A stretch of DNA of 64,000 nucleotides, from positions 1 to 64,000 of IMG/VR virus record IMGVR_UViG_3300023179_000058; one strand, 5' to 3'. Position numbers and translations under genes: made by a program. Below the pieces are notes generated by a model that was given only the letters and a program-made list of their open reading frames with translations, made no database searches and was not told where the DNA came from. This document shows, piece by piece, positions 3,799 to 54,616 of this stretch; the first letter of the stretch is position 1, and each line of letters starts with the position of its first letter. The DNA is from a virus.

Positions 3799-3908
3799 AC
3801 ACATTACTTTGGATTGCAGTTGGCGCATTTATTGGATGGAATTTTCCTCAACCATTTTGGGCGAAAATCATTCAAGAAAAAATTCAAAACGCGCTTGCAA
3901 AAAAATAA
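3792..3908 (+). CDS. small membrane peptide (38 aa, MLDTLLWIAVGAFIGWNFPQPFWAK...)
   Basis: RBS GAGGA, ATG at 3792, TAA at 3906-3908; not in the ORF track. Confidence 0.6.
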   Translation: MLDTLLWIAVGAFIGWNFPQPFWAKIIQEKIQNALAKK

Positions 3909-3920
3909 TAGGTAAATAAA

Positions 3921-4346
3921 ATGTTTCTATTCGAATGGTTGCCGATTTGGGTATTTAATGTAGTTCTATTTGCAGGAATTATTGGATTTATAGTTACATA
4001 CCTTTTTGATTTTATACCAATCGTGTATAAAATGCCAATTCAACTTGTATCAGTTTTATTCATTGTATTTGGCACATACATGTTTGGTGCAATTTCAAAC
4101 GAAGAAAGTTGGCAGTTAAAAATAAAAGAATTAGAAATAAAGGTTGCCGAATCAGAAGCAAAGTCAGCAAAAGAAACAGTAAAAATTGTTGAAAAAGTAA
4201 TCACTAAAACTCAAATTGTTCGTCAAAGGGGTGATGAAATTGTTCGTTATGTAGACAAAGAAATTGTAAAATATGATTCTAAATGTGAAATTCCAAAAGA
4301 AATTGTTACAACACTAAATAATGCTGCCGAAGGAATAAACAAATGA
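3921..4346 (+). CDS. Rz-like inner-membrane spanin
   Basis: N-terminal TM segments plus coiled-coil periplasmic domain; overlaps a lipoprotein gene; next to endolysin. Confidence 0.65.
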   Translation: MFLFEWLPIWVFNVVLFAGIIGFIVTYLFDFIPIVYKMPIQLVSVLFIVFGTYMFGAISNEESWQLKIKELEIKVAESEAKSAKETVKIVEKVITKTQIVRQRGDEIVRYVDKEIVKYDSKCEIPKEIVTTLNNAAEGINK

Positions 4347-4612: not shown

Positions 4613-5236
4613 ATGATAATAACATTAAAACAATTAGAACAATTATTGCGCGGCAATGACCATATTTCAGAATGGCACAATTCATTGTCAATGTTTCTTC
4701 CTGAATATGAGATTGATACAACAAACAGAATGGCTGCATTTATCGCGCAATGTTCACATGAATCTGGTGAATTCACTACGCTGAAAGAAAATTTAAATTA
4801 TCGTTGGCAATCATTGCGAAAAGTTTTTCCTAAATATTTTTTTAACGATGCAATTGCACAAAAATATGCATCATTGCCCAACAAACAAGAAGCAATCGCA
4901 AATAGAATTTATGCAAATCGTATGGGCAATGGACCAGAAGAATCTGGTGATGGATTTAAATATCGTGGAAGAGGATTGATTCAATTGACTGGATATCAAA
5001 ACTATAAACGATTTGCAGATTCATTAGGAATTACGCCAGAGGAAGCATCCGAATATTTAGAAACTTTCGAAGGTGCAACTGAATCAGCATGTTGGTTTTG
5101 GAGTACAAACAATTTAAATCAATGGGCAGACGCAGGAGATATGATTACTTTAACAAAGCGTATCAATGGTGGCACAAATGGACTTGAAGATCGTATTCAA
5201 CATTATGAACATGCTCTACATGTATTGGAGAATTAA
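4613..5236 (+). CDS. glycoside hydrolase family 19 endolysin
   Basis: AQCSHES, ENLNY, YRGRGLIQLTG and INGGTNGL motifs. Confidence 0.9.
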   Translation: MIITLKQLEQLLRGNDHISEWHNSLSMFLPEYEIDTTNRMAAFIAQCSHESGEFTTLKENLNYRWQSLRKVFPKYFFNDAIAQKYASLPNKQEAIANRIYANRMGNGPEESGDGFKYRGRGLIQLTGYQNYKRFADSLGITPEEASEYLETFEGATESACWFWSTNNLNQWADAGDMITLTKRINGGTNGLEDRIQHYEHALHVLEN

Positions 5237-5566
5237 ATGCCTCCTCTGCATAGTATGCTACAAGATGGTGACAATGGCTCTTTAAGTAGTAAAAGAGTAG
5301 TTACATTTTTGGCATTTATTTTTTGTAGCATTGCTTTCTTTGCAAATTTGTTTTTTGGCATGGAAGTAAAGGATTATATGTTTGAAGGTATGATGGCCAT
5401 TGCAGTTGCAGGTTTGGGGGTGACTGTAACAGAGAAGTTTGCCAGAAGATCGACATATCAATCTGAAGGATATGAGAATTTTACAGAAACCAAAGAATAC
5501 CGAAATATAAATAAAACAGATACAGGTGGGACAAAATTACCTAAACAATATGATAGAGAATTGTGA
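5237..5566 (+). CDS. putative holin (2 TM)
   Basis: SSKRV motif, two hydrophobic helices, directly after endolysin. Confidence 0.55.
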   Translation: MPPLHSMLQDGDNGSLSSKRVVTFLAFIFCSIAFFANLFFGMEVKDYMFEGMMAIAVAGLGVTVTEKFARRSTYQSEGYENFTETKEYRNINKTDTGGTKLPKQYDREL

Positions 5567-25439: not shown

Positions 25440-25530
25440 GCCTCTATAGTTTAATGGTAAAACAGCGGGCTTATACTCCGTAGCAACAGATAATTGGCTG
25501 ATGTAGGTTCGAATCCTACTAGAGGTACCA
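25440..25530 (+). tRNA. tRNA-Ile(UAU) with long variable arm
   Basis: GCGGG-CTTATAC-TCCGT; about 20-nt variable region; CCA. Confidence 0.82.
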
Positions 25531-46979: not shown

Positions 46980-47642
46980 ATGTTTACCCACAAATTTGTT
47001 GAGTTAGCGCCACTACAGACTACAACTATAGACGGCAAACGACATTATCAAACACCTGATGGATTGGTCTATCCATCAGTTACCACAATCACATCCCTAC
47101 ACGGCAAGGAAGGAATCCTTGAGTGGCGCAAGCGTGTAGGCGAAGAAGAAGCAAATAAAATATCCACTAGAGCCGCATCACGCGGCACTAGGGTACACAA
47201 ACTTTGCGAAGATTATCTTAACAACGAACTATCTTTTACCGGTGCGATGCCTAACAGTATTGCATTGTTCAAACAAATACAACCATTCATTGACAATTAT
47301 GTTGGTGAAGTGTATGGCATTGAATGTCCTCTGTATTCTCATCACCTGCGCGTAGCAGGCAAGAGTGATTGTATTGCACAATTTGATGGTAAAAACGCAG
47401 TTATAGATTTTAAGACAGCAAACAAACCAAAACAAGAACATTGGATTCAAAACTACTTTATGCAATGTGCGGCATACGCCGTAGCGTTTGAAGAGCGAAC
47501 CGGTATATCAATTCCTCGCATTGCGATTGTAGTTGCAGTTGAAGGTGACAGTCCGCAACTTTTTGTAAAGAAGCGTGACGATTATATTGATATGTTTATT
47601 TCTTATAGGAAGCAATACGATGAACAATTACTACTTGGATGA
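46980..47642 (+). CDS. PD-(D/E)XK exonuclease
   Basis: YPSVTT, GTRVH, DFKT and QCAAY motifs. Confidence 0.85.
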   Translation: MFTHKFVELAPLQTTTIDGKRHYQTPDGLVYPSVTTITSLHGKEGILEWRKRVGEEEANKISTRAASRGTRVHKLCEDYLNNELSFTGAMPNSIALFKQIQPFIDNYVGEVYGIECPLYSHHLRVAGKSDCIAQFDGKNAVIDFKTANKPKQEHWIQNYFMQCAAYAVAFEERTGISIPRIAIVVAVEGDSPQLFVKKRDDYIDMFISYRKQYDEQLLLG

Positions 47643-47910
47643 AAAACAAAAAGAGATTATGAGCATTGCACAGGAAGAATGTGCAGAAGTTGTTCAAGCA
47701 ATTAGTAAAATTTTTAGATTCGGATTAGATGAATCATTCGAAGGTAAGACTAATCGCGAAAGATTGACAAGTGAACTAGGTGATCTTCAATGCATGATTA
47801 CACTACTTAAACAGTATGAAGTAGTTGATGATTTTAAAGTACATCAAGCCGAACTTGCAAAAAGAACTCGCCTTAGCAAATGGTCTAACATCTTTACTGA
47901 GGTACAGTAA
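47620..47910 (+). CDS. MazG-like NTP pyrophosphohydrolase
   Basis: EECAE...ELGD motifs. Confidence 0.8.
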   Translation: MNNYYLDEKQKEIMSIAQEECAEVVQAISKIFRFGLDESFEGKTNRERLTSELGDLQCMITLLKQYEVVDDFKVHQAELAKRTRLSKWSNIFTEVQ

Positions 47911-48716
47911 TGATCGTTCTCTACGGGCATGGCTATGTTGCAGATTACATAGCCAAAGAAATGCATAAGCAATCATTTAAGTTTGTTCGCTTAACGCATC
48001 ATGCATTAGTACCTAAAGATGCAAAGTTTATTGTCAATGCCGCAGGCTTTACGGGCAACCCTAATGTAGATGCTTGTGAGGTTTTGCGTGATGAGTGCGT
48101 AGACGGAAACATTCGATGGCCACTTAAACTTGAAAGAATCGCAAGCCAAATTTCTGATATTCCAATTCTACACATTACTAGTGGTTGTGTGTATACTGGC
48201 TATGATAAAGAATGGACAGAAAATGATCCGCCAAACTTTACATTCAACAATGCTTCTTTCTATAGCGCATGTAAAGCATTGGCACAAGAACTACTATCGC
48301 CATATATGAACAAGTCATATTTGTTCCGAATTCGTATGCCATTTGGTCCGCACATTCACCACAAGAATCTATTGACAAAATATGAAAGATATGCTAAACT
48401 TGTAGACTATGAGAACAGCGTAACACAGGTTGAAGATTTAGCAAAATGTGTTTGTCATTTCATCATGATAAAACCAACATATGGAATTTATAATGTTTGT
48501 AATCCTGGCAGTACTAGCACGAAAGAAATTGTTGCAGAAATGGGGCTCCATAAAGAATGGATGACTCATGATGATTTTGCTAAGGCAGTAGTTGCGCCGA
48601 GAAGTAATTGTGTGCTAAATACTAAGAAGTTGGAAAGTGTGTATGCTATGCGGTATGCTGACCAAGCGGTAAGCGAAACAGTACGCACATACTTATCACA
48701 CAATCTTTACTTATGA
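47910..48716 (+). CDS. RmlD-like nucleotide-sugar 3,5-epimerase/4-reductase
   Basis: GFTGNPNVDACE, SGCVY, YSACK and RIRMP motifs. Confidence 0.8.
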   Translation: MIVLYGHGYVADYIAKEMHKQSFKFVRLTHHALVPKDAKFIVNAAGFTGNPNVDACEVLRDECVDGNIRWPLKLERIASQISDIPILHITSGCVYTGYDKEWTENDPPNFTFNNASFYSACKALAQELLSPYMNKSYLFRIRMPFGPHIHHKNLLTKYERYAKLVDYENSVTQVEDLAKCVCHFIMIKPTYGIYNVCNPGSTSTKEIVAEMGLHKEWMTHDDFAKAVVAPRSNCVLNTKKLESVYAMRYADQAVSETVRTYLSHNLYL

Positions 48717-48776
48717 CTGTATGAAGCAAAGAGAAAAGTGTTCTGGACGCGGGTTCGACTCCCGCCTGGTCCACCA
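48715..48776 (+). ncRNA. ssrA: permuted tmRNA, acceptor piece
   Basis: GGACGCGGGTTCGACTCCCGCCTGGTCCACCA = T-arm, 3' acceptor strand and CCA. The 5' boundary is approximate. Confidence 0.9.
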
Positions 48777-48793
48777 TAAGGAGATTTGTAAAC

Positions 48794-49180
48794 ATGGCAT
48801 ATTCCGATAAAGTAGTTGACCACTATGAAAACCCAAGAAATGTTGGATCGTTTGACAAGAACGATACTGATGTTGGTACTGGCATGGTTGGTGCTCCTGC
48901 TTGCGGAGATGTTATGAAACTACAGATAAAGGTTAATCATAAGACAGGTATTATTGAGGACGCCCGTTTTAAGACATACGGATGCGGGTCGGCAATCGCA
49001 TCAAGTTCTCTTGTCACAGAATGGGTCAAGGGCAAGACTCTTGACGAGGCGGCAGGTATTAAAAATTCTGAGATTGCAGAAGAACTCGCCCTCCCTCCAG
49101 TCAAAATACACTGTTCAATACTTGCTGAAGATGCGATTAAGTCAGCAGTAGAAGATTACCGAAAGAAAATCTCTTTATGA
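48794..49180 (+). CDS. iscU: Fe-S cluster scaffold IscU, inside the tmRNA intervening segment
   Basis: HYENPRN, APACGD, GCGSAIAS and LPPVKIHC motifs. Confidence 0.96.
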   Translation: MAYSDKVVDHYENPRNVGSFDKNDTDVGTGMVGAPACGDVMKLQIKVNHKTGIIEDARFKTYGCGSAIASSSLVTEWVKGKTLDEAAGIKNSEIAEELALPPVKIHCSILAEDAIKSAVEDYRKKISL

Positions 49181-49181
49181 T

Positions 49182-49350
49182 GGGCCAGTCATGGTTTCGA
49201 CAGGGCAAAGAGTAACAGAGTAGACAGTCCGGTAGATGACGACCGTAAATCGCATAAATAAAGTAAACGCAAACGATGAAAAGTTCGCATTGGCAGCCTA
49301 AACGCTGACTAGGGTTTCGGTGAGTTTCCTCGTAACAGAATAACTCACCA
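49182..49350 (+). ncRNA. ssrA: permuted tmRNA, coding piece (tag ANDEKFALAA)
   Basis: 5' GGGCCAG pairs with CTGGTCC including G3-U70; D-loop ...TTTCGAC; tag ORF 49269-49301. The 3' end is approximate. Confidence 0.9.
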
Positions 49351-49466
49351 CTAATTTTGGATAGTTGTAGTCGGCGGCAAAACCCGTTAGGCAGACCTAA
49401 CTTTGGATTGCTTTATGATAACGAACCGAAATGATTTTTAATTTTTTAACCTCTAAGGGGAATTTT

Positions 49467-49664
49467 ATGAAATATGTTATTGCAACTATCGTATCACTTT
49501 TCGCAACTATTGCTATGGCACAGCCAGCAAAGCAACCTGAACCAACTCCTCCTGCTAAAGTAGCAGAAGCGAAGAAGGAAGCACCTAAGGCAGAGGCTCC
49601 AAAGGCTGAAGCAAAGAAGGCTGATGCTAAGAAAGACGAAAAGAAAGAAACACCTAAGAAGTAA
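49467..49664 (+). CDS. small secreted Lys/Ala/Glu-rich protein
   Basis: Signal peptide followed by KAEAPKAEAKK repeats. Confidence 0.65.
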   Translation: MKYVIATIVSLFATIAMAQPAKQPEPTPPAKVAEAKKEAPKAEAPKAEAKKADAKKDEKKETPKK

Positions 49665-49763
49665 TTAAATAAGGGTCTTCCCAATTCCCCCCAAGAATTG
49701 GAATCCAATTTTATCACGCAGTAAGATTGGATTTTTTTTTTGCGTAATCTAAAGGAGACTAGT

Positions 49764-50804
49764 ATGGAGTTCTTAACTCTTGCCTTGTTCAAAGGCATTT
49801 CATACCTCTGGATGTTATTCTTCATTATGATAATTGCGGGACTAGCGAAACAATATGAATTGTTCGCCCCTGCCTATTCCTATGTTAAGAATACATTCAG
49901 GTCCAATAGATTTGTAGTTGCCCTACTGAGTGCAATCGGTGGCGTTCTTCCTATCGAAGGTCGCGTTACTGTGAGCGCAGGTCTTCTTGATACTGTGGCT
50001 CCAAAAGAGTCAGAGAGTAGAAAGAAGTTGGGCATCGTGGACTATCTAGCGACACACCACTATTACATGTGGTCGCCGTTAGAGAAAACCGTGATACTTC
50101 CTATCGCCGCATTTGGCTTAGCCTATAGTGCGTTTATAGGGATGATTGCACCTCTATTGGTGGTGAGTTTGGCGTTCATTACTTTCTATATCTGGACACA
50201 GATTAGGGAAGAAGAAATTCCAATCACACCTGGTCGATTTAAACTGAGTTCGGTCATAAGAAATGTAATGCCAATGGTAGTAGCAATTACTGCTTACGCT
50301 ACAGGTGTCGCTGATCACACTTGGTGTTTTGGCTTACTTGCTTTATATTATGTGTTTATCACACAACAATGGGATCCAAAGAAACTACTTGGTTATATCA
50401 AGTGGGATGTGATTGCAATTGTTGGCTTTGTGATTGTGCTAGGTAACTTCCTCAAATCATACGATAGTGCATTTGTAGCATTCATCAAAGGTAGTATGCT
50501 TGACCCTACTACATTTGTTGGTATGTTGATTATTTCTGTCGTTGGTTTTGTTGCAAGTTTTCTGATGGGTAGTTCTGGTAAGTTTATTGCTCTTGCTGTC
50601 GTTATGGCGCAAGTGTTTGGACCTCAATATTTCTTGTGGTTCTTTGCAATTGACTACGCAGGCTATTTACTCAGCCCAACACACAAATGCGTGATGGTAG
50701 GAAACACCTATTTCGGAACGCCACTCAGCGTGTATTATAAAGCACTTGGTACTTGGGCGCTATTGCTCATTGCTACCGCGGGGCTATTTACATTCATCAT
50801 CTAA
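49764..50804 (+). CDS. multi-pass membrane transporter (ion-transporter superfamily/DUF401-like)
   Basis: About 10 TM segments; LLSPTHKC motif. Confidence 0.65.
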   Translation: MEFLTLALFKGISYLWMLFFIMIIAGLAKQYELFAPAYSYVKNTFRSNRFVVALLSAIGGVLPIEGRVTVSAGLLDTVAPKESESRKKLGIVDYLATHHYYMWSPLEKTVILPIAAFGLAYSAFIGMIAPLLVVSLAFITFYIWTQIREEEIPITPGRFKLSSVIRNVMPMVVAITAYATGVADHTWCFGLLALYYVFITQQWDPKKLLGYIKWDVIAIVGFVIVLGNFLKSYDSAFVAFIKGSMLDPTTFVGMLIISVVGFVASFLMGSSGKFIALAVVMAQVFGPQYFLWFFAIDYAGYLLSPTHKCVMVGNTYFGTPLSVYYKALGTWALLLIATAGLFTFII

Positions 50805-50846
50805 CATAACCTAGGGGCAGAGACCCCTAGATTGGGAGGAAAACTT

Positions 50847-51716
50847 ATGATAAAACAAATGCTATCATTAGCAGTTGCTTTTGCATTTTTTTCTGGCAAT
50901 GCAATCGCACAAAATAAATTAAGTACGCCGGAATCTGAAGTAAGAAAAGAGGAAGAAGCAAAAACATTACCCGCGGTAATTGTAAGTGCTAAAATTCCAA
51001 ATCAGTTTGATACTGTCGGTGAGTATAATCAGCCAGTCTGGACTACTACTCGAATGTTTCCCACTACAAGAGCATATGTGATGACACCGCCAGGTGCCGT
51101 TAAATATGAAAAGTGGTTTGACTTTAGAGATAGAAAAAATGGTCCAACTCAAATTCGTATGCGTGATGAGTTGGCATTCGGTTTGGGAAACAGATTGGAA
51201 TTAGATTTGTATAACCATACCGTGTATGATGGTCCATCTGAAGACAAGACATTTGCTTGGAGAGGATTCAGTTGGGAGATTCGATATGCGTTAGCAGATT
51301 GGGGAAAGATTCCTGGAAACCCTACATTATATTTTGAACATAAATTGATTAATGGGGTTCAAGGTATCGAGCCAAAACTTTTGTTATCTGACAGAATTGG
51401 AAACACCGACTGGATTTGGGCAACTAATTTCATCTATGAAGCAAACTTAGCGAAAACTAAAGCCGCACAAGAACGCGAATATGCAGTTACCGCAAGTCTA
51501 GGTAAAATTATAAGCAACAATTTGACGGTGGGTGCATCTGCACATTACAGATACCATAACTATGAAGACAATATTAAAGAACTTTATATTGGTCCGAATA
51601 TCAATTATCGTGTCGGTAAGAATGCAAGATTCAGTCTAGAATATATGCCTCTAGTTTCAAAAGAAGGCAAATATGATAGTAGAAGTTTCTTTATCTTTGC
51701 ATGGGACCTTCAGTAG
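50847..51716 (+). CDS. putative outer-membrane beta-barrel protein
   Basis: Signal peptide; alternating beta strands; aromatic C-terminal strand FFIFAWDL. Confidence 0.65.
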   Translation: MIKQMLSLAVAFAFFSGNAIAQNKLSTPESEVRKEEEAKTLPAVIVSAKIPNQFDTVGEYNQPVWTTTRMFPTTRAYVMTPPGAVKYEKWFDFRDRKNGPTQIRMRDELAFGLGNRLELDLYNHTVYDGPSEDKTFAWRGFSWEIRYALADWGKIPGNPTLYFEHKLINGVQGIEPKLLLSDRIGNTDWIWATNFIYEANLAKTKAAQEREYAVTASLGKIISNNLTVGASAHYRYHNYEDNIKELYIGPNINYRVGKNARFSLEYMPLVSKEGKYDSRSFFIFAWDLQ

Positions 51717-52644: not shown

Positions 52645-53295
52645 ATGAAATTTGCTCTTCAATGTTCATATGATGCAGGCTATGCAGTTCTTGGCGATTT
52701 GACATGGTATAAAAATAAAGTCAAGTATTGTGAGAAACATGGATACACGCCTGCACTACACATTTATACTAAACCTTTGCTTCCTCATAGTTACATGAAG
52801 ATGTTTCATGTGAGAGAACTTTTCAAAGAAAATAAACACGATTGGATATGGGTTACTGGTTGTGATTCTATGATCACAAACATGACTGTAAAATTAGAAG
52901 ATATTGCCGATGAAAACTATCATCTAATTATTGCTACAGATGTTAATGGGCTGAACGCTGATAGTTTTTTGATTCGCAATTCTGAAGAAGGTAGATACTA
53001 CATTGATTATATTATTAGTGGAGTTGATACTTACAGAAACCATCATTGGGCTGAACAGCAAGCCATGATGGACTGCCAAGATAAATTTAAAGACATTACT
53101 AAATTTGTTCCTCAGAGAACATTTAACTCTTATAACTATGATTTTTATCCTCATTGTGCCAAGCCAAATTTAGATAAGTTAGGAACAGATGGTAATTGGC
53201 AACATGGAGATTTTCTAATTCACTGGCCTGGACAAACTTTGGAGCGAAGACTCCAGCATTTTGAACGATATTCACAAAGCGTAATTTATGATTGA
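52645..53295 (+). CDS. GT34 (GMA12/MNN10)-like glycosyltransferase
   Basis: KYCEKHGY, WIWVTGCD, EQ, FNSY and GDFLIHWPG motifs. Confidence 0.75.
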   Translation: MKFALQCSYDAGYAVLGDLTWYKNKVKYCEKHGYTPALHIYTKPLLPHSYMKMFHVRELFKENKHDWIWVTGCDSMITNMTVKLEDIADENYHLIIATDVNGLNADSFLIRNSEEGRYYIDYIISGVDTYRNHHWAEQQAMMDCQDKFKDITKFVPQRTFNSYNYDFYPHCAKPNLDKLGTDGNWQHGDFLIHWPGQTLERRLQHFERYSQSVIYD

Positions 53296-54616
53296 TAAAG
53301 AAAAAATTCTGACAGATATTGCACACTATATCTGGCAACAGAAAGAACAGAAGACTTGGACTCCAGGAAAAGACTTTGTAAACTATGCAGGTCCATTCTT
53401 TGATGAGCATGAAATTATCGTAGCAGTTCGCACACTACTAGATGGTTGGCTTGTTATGGGTGATGATTGTGCAAGATTCGAAAGAAAGTTTCCGCGCGAG
53501 TTTGGTAAAGAGTGCGGCATTCTAACAAACTCTGGTTCTAGTTCTAATCTTTTAATGATGGCTTCGCTTACATCAAAGCGCGGACACAATCTACCTAAAG
53601 GCACAAAGGTACTAGTTCCTATCGCAGGATTTCCTACGACACTCAATCCAACACTACAAGTAGGGTTCGAACCAGTCTTTGTTGACATTGAAATTGATAC
53701 ATTGAATCTAGACTTAGATCAGGTTGTTGATATTCTAGATTCTGATCCAGACATTCGCGTAATTACATTCGCGCATGTACTAGGCAATCCTCCAAACATG
53801 GATTGTCTCATGGACATTGTGAAGCACTACAATCTTATTCTATTAGAAGATTGCTGTGACGCACTCGGATCAACATACGATGGTAAGCCTCTTGGTTCAT
53901 TTGGTGAAATGGCATCATGTTCATTCTATCCCGCACATCACATGACAATGGGTGAGGGTGGCTTTGTCGCATGTAACACTAACGAACAAGAAGTTATTCT
54001 CCGTTCATTCAGAGAATGGGGACGCGGTTGCTATTGCGTAGGACCGAAAGCAAACAAACTCAAGTGCGGTACTTGTAAAGAACGATTCAAAGAATGGATA
54101 CCTGAACTACCAGGAGAAATTTTTGATCACAAGTATGTCTATGATGAAATTGGATACAATCTAAAGCCTATTGAACTGCAAGGTTCAATAGGAATGATTC
54201 AATTAGATAAACTAGAACAGATTCATGAATTGCGTAGACGCAACTATAAAATGCTTTTTGACATTTACGCCAAGTACGAAGAATTTTTTAGTCTACCAAG
54301 AGCAACACATAAGTCAGACCCATCATGGTTTGCTTTTCCTCTAACGATTCGTAAAAATGCGCCATTTACGCGAAGTGAAATTGTTGACTATCTTGAAGAC
54401 AATTTGATTCAAACACGCCCATACTTCGCTGGCAACATCATGCTTCAGCCTGCGTATAGTCATCTTATGAATCCCGCAGACGCTAGAGATTATTTCCCGG
54501 TCGCAACATATGCAATGACGCATACATACTTTCACGGAACTAGTCCAGTGATTACGCCACAGCAGATTCAATATATCGGTGATGTGGTAGATAACTTTAT
54601 AAAAAGCAAGGTATGA
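53288..54616 (+). CDS. rfbH: CDP-4-keto-6-deoxyglucose 3-dehydrase (RfbH/DdhC family)
   Basis: NSGSSSNL; SFYPAHHMTMGEGG (His in place of Lys); GRGCYC...CGTC Fe-S motif; YDEIGYN. Confidence 0.85.
   Translation: MIDKEKILTDIAHYIWQQKEQKTWTPGKDFVNYAGPFFDEHEIIVAVRTLLDGWLVMGDDCARFERKFPREFGKECGILTNSGSSSNLLMMASLTSKRGHNLPKGTKVLVPIAGFPTTLNPTLQVGFEPVFVDIEIDTLNLDLDQVVDILDSDPDIRVITFAHVLGNPPNMDCLMDIVKHYNLILLEDCCDALGSTYDGKPLGSFGEMASCSFYPAHHMTMGEGGFVACNTNEQEVILRSFREWGRGCYCVGPKANKLKCGTCKERFKEWIPELPGEIFDHKYVYDEIGYNLKPIELQGSIGMIQLDKLEQIHELRRRNYKMLFDIYAKYEEFFSLPRATHKSDPSWFAFPLTIRKNAPFTRSEIVDYLEDNLIQTRPYFAGNIMLQPAYSHLMNPADARDYFPVATYAMTHTYFHGTSPVITPQQIQYIGDVVDNFIKSKV

Follow-up and report, generated by a model that had tools for sequence, protein, structure and literature searches.

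A two-piece tmRNA gene with iscU in its intervening segment

The stretch analysed here (the window) corresponds to positions 1-64,000 of an IMG/VR virus record of 89.8 kb (IMGVR_UViG_3300023179_000058; ~55% complete) from an uncultured freshwater phage. Between positions 48715 and 49373 it contains, on the plus strand, a permuted gene for a two-piece transfer-messenger RNA (tmRNA), in which the piece ending in CCA (the acceptor piece) precedes the piece bearing the tag reading frame (the coding piece). The 405-nt intervening segment, or spacer, between the two is filled almost exactly by a whole iscU gene for an iron-sulphur (Fe-S) scaffold protein. A first-pass annotation, made from the letters alone, had proposed this arrangement, which is confirmed by RF04321, ARAGORN, PF01592 and a second locus, L279. 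The positions that it gave for the end of the acceptor piece (48776), G1 (49182), iscU (48794-49180) and the tag (49269-49301) all hold on direct reading, as do the 7-bp acceptor stem and its G3-U70 pair. The features of the locus are given below, where L201, L191 and L279 are related loci and fractions of 79 refer to the non-redundant spacers among the matches listed from a scan of viral contigs.

48715..48776, plus strand: tmRNA acceptor piece (RF04321, ARAGORN; 97% identity to the acceptor pieces of L201 and L191)
48777..49181, plus strand: intervening segment, 405 nt (a single RF04321 insert; 83% identity to the 402-nt segment of L279)
48777..48787, plus strand: closing stem, 5' strand TAAGGAGATTT (direct reading; contains the Shine-Dalgarno sequence AAGGAG)
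48794..49180, plus strand: iscU coding sequence, 128 codons plus TGA, C-terminus ...DYRKKISL (PF01592, phrog_8429, solved IscU chains)
49167..49177, plus strand: closing stem, 3' strand AAATCTCTTTA (direct reading; within the last four iscU codons, K-I-S-L)
49178..49181, plus strand: unpaired 4-nt leader TGAT, the iscU stop plus U(-1) before G1 (TGAT in 54/79 and TAAT in 21/79 spacers)
49182..49373, plus strand: tmRNA coding piece (RF04321; the RF01850 beta_tmRNA alignment, 67.1 bits, covers the piece)
49269..49301, plus strand: tag reading frame GCA..., ANDEKFALAA plus TAA (ARAGORN; same or similar tags in relatives)
49319..49349, plus strand: post-tag hairpin GGTGAGTT...AACTCACC (RF01850 alignment and fold; loop conserved in beta-type tmRNA)

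The covariance model RF04321 (tmRNA_permuted) matched 48715-49301 along its whole length (positions 1-213 of 213; 127.5 bits against a cut-off of 47, E = 1.4e-24), and the 405 nt between the CCA end and G1 were handled as one insert. ARAGORN also called a permuted tmRNA (tmRNA*), at 48682-49392 and with the tag ANDEKFALAA; its verbose output puts the 5' tRNA domain inside iscU, which is a wrong placement. The outer ends of the two pieces are uncertain, the ARAGORN gene starting at 48682 and ending at 49392. The acceptor piece holds the 5' strands of two linking helices, a T-arm (GCGGG-TTCGACT-CCCGC), CTGGTCC, the discriminator A and CCA. The coding piece begins with GGGCCAG and continues with a D-loop-like ATGGTTTCGAC, the 3' strands of the linking helices, a CCGG..CCG(G) hairpin, the tag frame and the post-tag hairpin. 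The tag frame has an alanine resume codon and a hydrophobic ALAA-type end.

Several lines of evidence join the two pieces into one molecule. CTGGTCC-A-CCA ending at 48776 and GGGCCAG from 49182 form seven base pairs including G3.U70, and the linking helices that had been proposed between the pieces (GACUG/CAGUC and GUG-UUC/GGG-CA) are present in the RF04321 alignment. The minimum-free-energy fold of 48715-49392 contains the linking helices, the T-arm, the acceptor stem and a closing stem described below. Acceptor pair 6:67 is Watson-Crick in 88/90 distinct related tmRNA genes (U-A 55, A-U 31, G-C 1, C-G 1), and because this pair covaries the two halves belong together beyond chance. Throughout the 89.8-kb record there is one acceptor piece and one coding piece only, and these are mutually complementary. 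Both tmRNA halves are intact, and the 405-nt segment is predicted from the model alignment to be absent from the mature tmRNA. We found no sign that this is a tmRNA of the group I intron form: within the window every intron family stayed short of its gathering score, and the T-loop is uninterrupted.

The protein encoded in the spacer is a complete IscU. It matched PF01592 (NifU_N) with residues 2-126 on profile positions 1-124 of 127 (186.1 bits, cut-off 22, E = 3.3e-55), its match in PHROGs is phrog_8429, and it aligned over its whole length with solved IscU chains of the E. coli type (2l4x, E = 1.5e-67). The GAPACGD, YGCGS and LPPVKIHC stretches are identical to those of the solved IscU 2l4x/3lvl; we take them to contribute the cluster-ligand cysteines, Asp and His, and LPPVK to be the chaperone-binding motif. 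No other NifU_N match was found in the 89.8-kb record. The open reading frame (ORF) takes up 387 of the 405 nt of the spacer, so that 17 nt separate CCA from the ATG and a single nt separates the stop codon from G1. The Shine-Dalgarno sequence AAGGAG (48778-48783, spacer positions 2-7) begins one base past CCA, 10 nt before the ATG. At the other end, the TGA (49178-49180) is followed by one T and then by G1 at 49182, and the U(-1)|G1 junction is the expected site of RNase P cleavage.

A second locus supports the layout and its maintenance

Using a degenerate search pattern (CCA, 8-30 nt, IscU N-terminus) we recovered two metagenome contigs, L279 and L280. The former has the same layout (RF04321 120.9 bits, a 402-nt spacer and the tag ANDELFALAA), and ARAGORN called no tmRNA on it. 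The latter is 82% identical to window positions 47625-48822, where the end of the contig falls just inside iscU. No viral contig matched in a scan for iscU placed immediately 3' of CCA, the window's own record possibly being outside that scan.

The IscU proteins of the window and L279 are identical at 116/127 residues, and the nucleotide differences between their genes are distributed 13/5/56 by codon position. Nonsynonymous divergence (dN) is 0.068 and synonymous divergence (dS) ~1.5, giving a dN/dS of 0.045; these rates show iscU to be, as judged by comparing the two genes, under strong purifying selection in two diverged phages. Both loci share the leader and the tail ...RKKISL-TGA-T. The tmRNA parts differ in a compensatory manner, with GCGGG/CCCGC in the T-stem of the window and GGGGG/CCCCC in that of L279, and with acceptor pair 6:67 being A-U in the former and U-A in the latter. 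The selection on iscU and the compensatory changes in the tmRNA therefore indicate that both the protein gene and the tmRNA have been maintained since these phages diverged.

This comparison bears on the possibility that insertion of iscU disabled the tmRNA, leaving decaying flanks around the only gene that matters. Such a pseudogene would account for the misplacement of the 5' domain by ARAGORN in the window, for its failure to call L279 and for an RF01850 score below cut-off. It is hard to reconcile with RF04321 scores of 127.5 bits in the window and 120.9 bits in L279, with the compensatory T-stem and acceptor changes, with tags (ANDEKFALAA, ANDELFALAA) kept despite an iscU dS of ~1.5, or with the full tmRNA scores of 13/13 long-segment relatives listed, and we regard it as very improbable.

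An artefact is less credible still. The window might be an assembly chimera, or it might carry the scar of a prophage or island that integrated into ssrA and displaced a 3' tmRNA fragment upstream. The tmRNA 3' end is described as a classic integration site (PMC11915505), and conserved tRNA-like parts are high-depth branch points in contig graphs. Two DNA contigs, each from another study, match the locus with zero differences: X5 record 18 over 48753-49201, with only 24 and 20 letters past the two junctions and so under our 31-letter rule, and X6 record 29 over 48955-49220, which clears that rule for the iscU-to-G1 junction. The same layout is found in the diverged L279 and, up to the contig end, in L280, and the architecture recurs with other cargo in 13/13 loci checked. 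The single 3' end and single 5' end in the record are complementary, there is no duplicated 3' fragment in the 89.8 kb, and only iscU lies between the pieces. We therefore give a chimera or an integration scar practically no weight, and the suggestion that the window might contain a misassembled standard tmRNA is not borne out.

As a separate observation, L279 encodes at 3802-4215, ~3 kb upstream of its tmRNA, a 137-aa protein with a GGQ motif (…GTGAGGQKRNK…), which presumably resembles ribosome-rescue factors of the ArfB/peptidyl-tRNA-hydrolase type.

ORF-filled spacers form a wider class

A scan of viral contigs for a T-arm followed by an acceptor end returned at least 120 loci. Among the matches listed, to which the counts in this section and the next refer, both tmRNA halves were located in 109/121 sequences (window included), yielding 80 non-redundant spacers, of which one, 4 nt long, was set aside to leave 79. 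In this survey of related phages, which the first-pass annotation had suggested, 32/79 spacers are filled by an ORF, and 28 of these 32 ORFs end at the terminal stop codon. A Shine-Dalgarno-like motif is present in the first 12 nt of 25/32 ORF-filled spacers versus 6/47 others (Fisher p = 4.5e-9). Among spacers of at least 100 nt, 17/26 have an ORF over at least 85% of their length, and all 13 non-redundant spacers of at least 160 nt have one over at least 90% (shuffle p <= 0.0015 each). The window belongs to this class by its Shine-Dalgarno sequence, an ORF over at least 80% of the spacer, a TGA at -4..-2 and 11/11 stem pairs. All 13 long-spacer loci pass RF04321, at 69-136 bits; RF01850 is passed by 5/13 ORF-bearing relatives, which have shorter spacers (91-119 bits).

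Searching Pfam and PHROGs with 10 cargo ORFs gave one clear match, a thioredoxin in L164 (PF00085, E = 4e-21), and a weak match to DUF6552 in L167. The 122-codon ORF of L166 had no Pfam or PHROGs match, and the remaining cargo has no family or consists of short hydrophobic or membrane peptides. The window's iscU is the longest cargo among these spacers and, together with the thioredoxin, the only one of clear known function. No tmRNA was listed by ARAGORN for L164, while RF04321 gave 121-136 bits on the window, L279 and L164. The standard tmRNA finder deals poorly with long coding spacers, and with 32/79 spacers filled the class represents a hidden pool of phage genes.

Five further loci (L202, L087, L103, L109 and L113) have 101-nt spacers with a conserved ORF (MKYTALCPSCF..RFSWVPGKGLTKHKCFSD...) after a Shine-Dalgarno site. 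This ORF is out of frame with the terminal TGA and continues past G1 into the mature coding piece, so that cleavage at G1 would turn it into a non-stop message.

Cellular genomes and cultured phages present a different picture. A pattern scan of genome contigs gave 43 loci, in which the permuted genes were those of Acidobacteriaceae, with 28-38-nt spacers, and L220, likely a phage contig binned as Bifidobacterium, with an 87-nt spacer. RF01850 had no match above cut-off in a sample of 151 genomes of one class, and RF04321 had no match in genome G001; this cellular comparison lacks a proper beta-type control. Permuted tmRNA genes are also present in four cultured phages (L281-L284), namely Xanthomonas phages Rb1, JGB6 and BUDD and Stenotrophomonas phage vB_Sm_QDWS359. 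They are unannotated there, the acceptor match lying under a 'hypothetical protein' coding sequence in 3/4 and without annotation in Rb1, and their stem-closed spacers of ~80-130 nt have a TGAT leader. By eye, with no ORF scan, no Shine-Dalgarno site or filling ORF was seen in these four spacers, and no cultured phage with an ORF-bearing spacer was found. The earlier statement that the intervening segments of permuted tmRNA genes are normally short and non-coding thus stands for the Acidobacteriaceae and the four cultured phages and fails for the viral contigs.

Ribosome-binding site and last codons lie in the closing stem

The spacers are closed by an 11-bp stem, in which positions 1-11 pair with the 11 bases before the 4-nt leader in 70-78 of the 79 spacers. 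Many pair types are seen (covariation), and a one-base register shift either way destroys the pattern. The stem extends the acceptor helix and so abuts both tRNA-like ends. This argues against the idea that the acceptor piece, iscU and the coding piece are independent transcription units from which nothing is excised: covariation between the two strands is expected only if both lie in one RNA, as they therefore appear to do, and the 17-nt and 1-nt gaps around iscU leave no room for a promoter or terminator. We consider separate transcription most unlikely.

In ORF-bearing spacers the two strands of the stem hold the ribosome-binding site and the last codons, respectively. The duplex energy of the window's stem is -10.7 kcal/mol, and the median is -7.4 kcal/mol for ORF-bearing spacers vs -12.0 kcal/mol for the others (p = 7.5e-8). 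Weaker stems would be expected if ribosomes need to open them, and base composition alone could also yield this difference. The protein ends also appear to have been shaped by the stem. Free-standing phage iscU genes end in ...RKKH or ...RNRHSQ and that of the window in ...RKKISL, with KISL spanning the 3' strand of the stem; because the free-standing C-termini differ, the C-terminus in the window was rewritten to fit the RNA. The cargo of relatives ends in ...VSL, ...MSL or ...FL.

Cargo is exchangeable and the capture of iscU is derived

Comparison with close relatives shows that the spacer changes independently of its surroundings. The acceptor piece of the window is 97% identical and its coding piece 83-84% identical to those of L201 and L191, and the segments between them are unrelated. 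In these near-identical backbones the slot is occupied by a 55-codon ORF (L201), by a 68-nt spacer without ORF (L191) or by a spacer also without ORF (L146). The reverse is seen against L279, where the spacer is 83% identical and the acceptor and coding pieces only 76% and 72%, nearer another subtype, so that the iscU cargo is conserved in a second, diverged tmRNA backbone. Syntenic relatives (PhoH, PD-(D/E)XK nuclease, tmRNA) have spacers of 61-109 nt. The first-pass annotation had gone further and proposed that the arrangement couples ribosome rescue specifically to Fe-S supply. That coupling is unsupported because the same slot takes unrelated cargo, holding a 55-codon ORF, no ORF, thioredoxin or membrane peptides.

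To trace the gene itself, relatives were collected through IscU (the best 80 of 599 confirmed stretches; 82 loci examined). The window's IscU is up to 93% identical to IscU of other viral contigs. At 79/82 loci iscU has no tmRNA nearby, and at 21/82 it lies upstream of a PD-(D/E)XK nuclease gene. Since iscU is free-standing elsewhere in the phage group, its capture into the spacer is derived, and it is plausible that the conserved tRNA-like flanks served as recombination arms. A tmRNA near iscU was found in L022 (by ARAGORN, the one case in the 82 loci) and, by blastn, in L058 and L042. In these three (L022, 3001-4098) iscU-iscA is directly upstream of a normal permuted tmRNA, not inside it; the L022 tmRNA has a 108-nt spacer without ORF and scores 120 bits with RF01850. 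This iscU-iscA-tmRNA neighbourhood was considered as the source of the capture and dropped, its IscU falling in a supported clade that excludes that of the window.

The viral contig with the IscU closest to the window's among those best 80 (L004, 93%) also encodes a predicted tRNA with a CTA anticodon at 5207-5281, called Pyl by ARAGORN and amber-suppressor-like.

A proposed route of expression

We consider it highly probable that the locus is a genuine, probably functional beta-type two-piece tmRNA gene, the intervening segment of which has been co-opted as a slot for a functional iscU, expressed along the following lines. Acceptor piece, iscU and coding piece would be made as one precursor. 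Ribosomes would load on the Shine-Dalgarno site mainly on nascent or unprocessed RNA, before the closing stem forms or in competition with it, and would terminate at the UGA-U directly before G1, where a terminating ribosome would have the 5' acceptor strand under its footprint. Folding of the closing stem and of the tRNA-like domain would come next, and the two tmRNA pieces would be freed by an RNase P cut at U(-1)|G1 and by trimming of the 3' end to CCA; they would stay paired and act with host SmpB and alanyl-tRNA synthetase (AlaRS). IscU would serve as an auxiliary Fe-S scaffold alongside a host cysteine desulfurase. The link between tmRNA and iscU would consist of shared transcription and a shared stem, not of a dedicated functional coupling.

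Several observations weigh against this reading. The window scores 67.1 bits with RF01850 (beta_tmRNA), below the cut-off of 84, as this model aligns mainly the coding piece because the acceptor piece is 405 nt away. In an IscU tree (128 columns, mostly unresolved) the window and L279 are nearest by path (0.23) and form no supported clade. No SmpB was found in the ~55%-complete record, and a promoter and terminator scan gave nothing above chance (6 promoter-like sites vs 5.4 in shuffles). The 10-nt spacing between the Shine-Dalgarno sequence and the ATG is toward the long end of the usual range, and the stem could hide the Shine-Dalgarno site and make translation poor. The RNA evidence consists of Logan contigs only, in which uncovered parts of the stretch carry no weight; the RNA-library contigs touching the stretch are those of relatives or come from the conserved iscU of other organisms, and they are short or have mismatches, as at 49013-49055 with conserved iscU of other organisms. 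Of the relatives, X16 record 11 joins 48747-48786 to 49170-49215 with 87 other letters between, and X15 record 7 covers 49260-49422.

A variant of the proposed route would have maturation free the 405-nt segment as a complete iscU mRNA that is the main template for IscU, tying IscU output stoichiometrically to tmRNA. It differs only in the RNA species that is translated. The ORF, the Shine-Dalgarno site and the full UGA-U stop signal all lie inside 48777-49181, and paired ends could protect the free RNA. In the excised RNA, however, the Shine-Dalgarno site would be locked in a terminal stem of -10.7 kcal/mol, and an endonuclease that processes the 3' end of the acceptor piece may cleave within the leader. 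Because the Shine-Dalgarno site is paired with the final iscU codons, ribosomes are at least as likely to translate the precursor, nascent or not yet processed, as the excised RNA, and we find the excised segment an unlikely main template.

On the precursor route, one transcript would be both messenger and tmRNA precursor, and the ribosome-binding site and last codons would double as the processing stem. We tentatively extend this to a general proposal, which we hold possible but doubtful: the spacer would be a dedicated, recombination-exchangeable gene slot in which one stem mechanically couples translation and RNA maturation, the 5' strand being the ribosome-binding site, the 3' strand the last codons and UGA-U both the stop and the RNase P leader. 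The precursor would act first as messenger and then as tmRNA, or would else give a stem-closed mRNA with its stop signal at the very end, and in this way both cargo output and the supply of tmRNA would sense ribosome availability; the cargo may lean to Fe-S and thiol-redox functions (IscU, thioredoxin). The locus offers a system for studying the competition between translation and RNase P-type processing on one RNA, and a compact natural design for expressing a protein and a structured RNA together.

Relation to known systems

Two-piece tmRNA genes are described from Alphaproteobacteria, some Betaproteobacteria, Cyanobacteria and aquatic phages (PMC11915505, PMC9004378). Compared with the betaproteobacterial form (RF01850, RF04321; PMC11915505), as in the OM43 phage Melnitz (PMC9004378), the window has the same order of acceptor piece, intervening sequence and coding piece. 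A tRNA-like domain made of two RNAs, G3.U70, an ALAA-ended tag and the beta-type post-tag hairpin are also common to the window and known two-piece tmRNA. The difference lies in the intervening sequence, which in the window is 405 nt long and a complete protein gene under selection. The passages on unusual spacer contents in the 2025 tmRNA database paper name a tRNA-Ala gene and a repetitive element and make no mention there of ORFs (PMC11915505), and the corresponding part of the Melnitz report gives a glutamine riboswitch, not an ORF (PMC9004378). A literature search, which covered texts and not supplements, turned up no report of a protein gene within the intervening sequence of a tmRNA; long spacers may be listed in the tables of PMC11915505. 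The finding stands out in that the cargo has a known function and has been kept by strong purifying selection in two tmRNA backbones.

Phage iscU, for its part, is an established auxiliary metabolic gene (PMC5332604). The window's gene is of the same protein family as the free-standing phage iscU (PMC5332604; phrog_8429) but sits inside a stable-RNA gene, with its C-terminus rewritten to ...KKISL, and so gives Fe-S auxiliary genes a new genomic home in phage ecology.

The nearest analogue is the 428-nt intervening sequence (IVS) in helix 45 of Coxiella burnetii 23S rRNA, which encodes S23p (PMC4990558). Both are stem-closed, ORF-containing spacers cut from a stable-RNA precursor, excision being predicted in the case of the window. 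In Coxiella the host RNA is an rRNA, the element is called selfish and its protein is suggested not to be made (PMC4990558), whereas the cargo of the window is a well-known enzyme-scaffold gene with a dN/dS of 0.045 and its own Shine-Dalgarno site. The group I intron form of tmRNA (an intron in the T-loop, sometimes with a homing endonuclease; PMC11915505) likewise has a protein gene inside the tmRNA gene that is removed as RNA. In the window, by contrast, the insert of the permuted gene is flanked by CCA and G1 and is predicted to be removed by end-processing, not splicing. Spacers of stable RNAs are treated as discarded material, and annotation pipelines skip them.

Neighbouring genes

Elsewhere in the window there are genes for primase, ribonucleotide reductase, PhoH, MazG-like and tape-measure-like proteins. 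Directly upstream of the tmRNA, an ORF without family match (47910-48716, 268 aa; ORF268) ends in the first bases of the acceptor piece. Given this overlap, the tmRNA precursor may be part of a longer PhoH-nuclease-MazG-ORF268 transcript. An aminotransferase-like ORF at 53288-54616 was considered as a cysteine desulfurase candidate and rejected, being of the DegT/DnrJ type and not class V.

Directly 3' of the tmRNA, 49431-51716 holds three ORFs, which encode a 77-aa protein that has a signal peptide and a tail rich in Lys, Ala and Glu, a membrane protein of the DUF401 family (phrog_14035, E = 2.5e-86) and a 294-aa protein with a predicted signal peptide and a sub-threshold match to DUF2490 (22.2 bits, cut-off 29.8). 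Together they look like an envelope-related cargo block.

ARAGORN found 26 tRNA genes in the window. One member of this 26-gene tRNA cluster, at 25440-25530 and called Ile(tat), is 91 nt long, which is unusually long for an isoleucine tRNA, and matches the Rfam tRNA family at 66 bits with an insertion.

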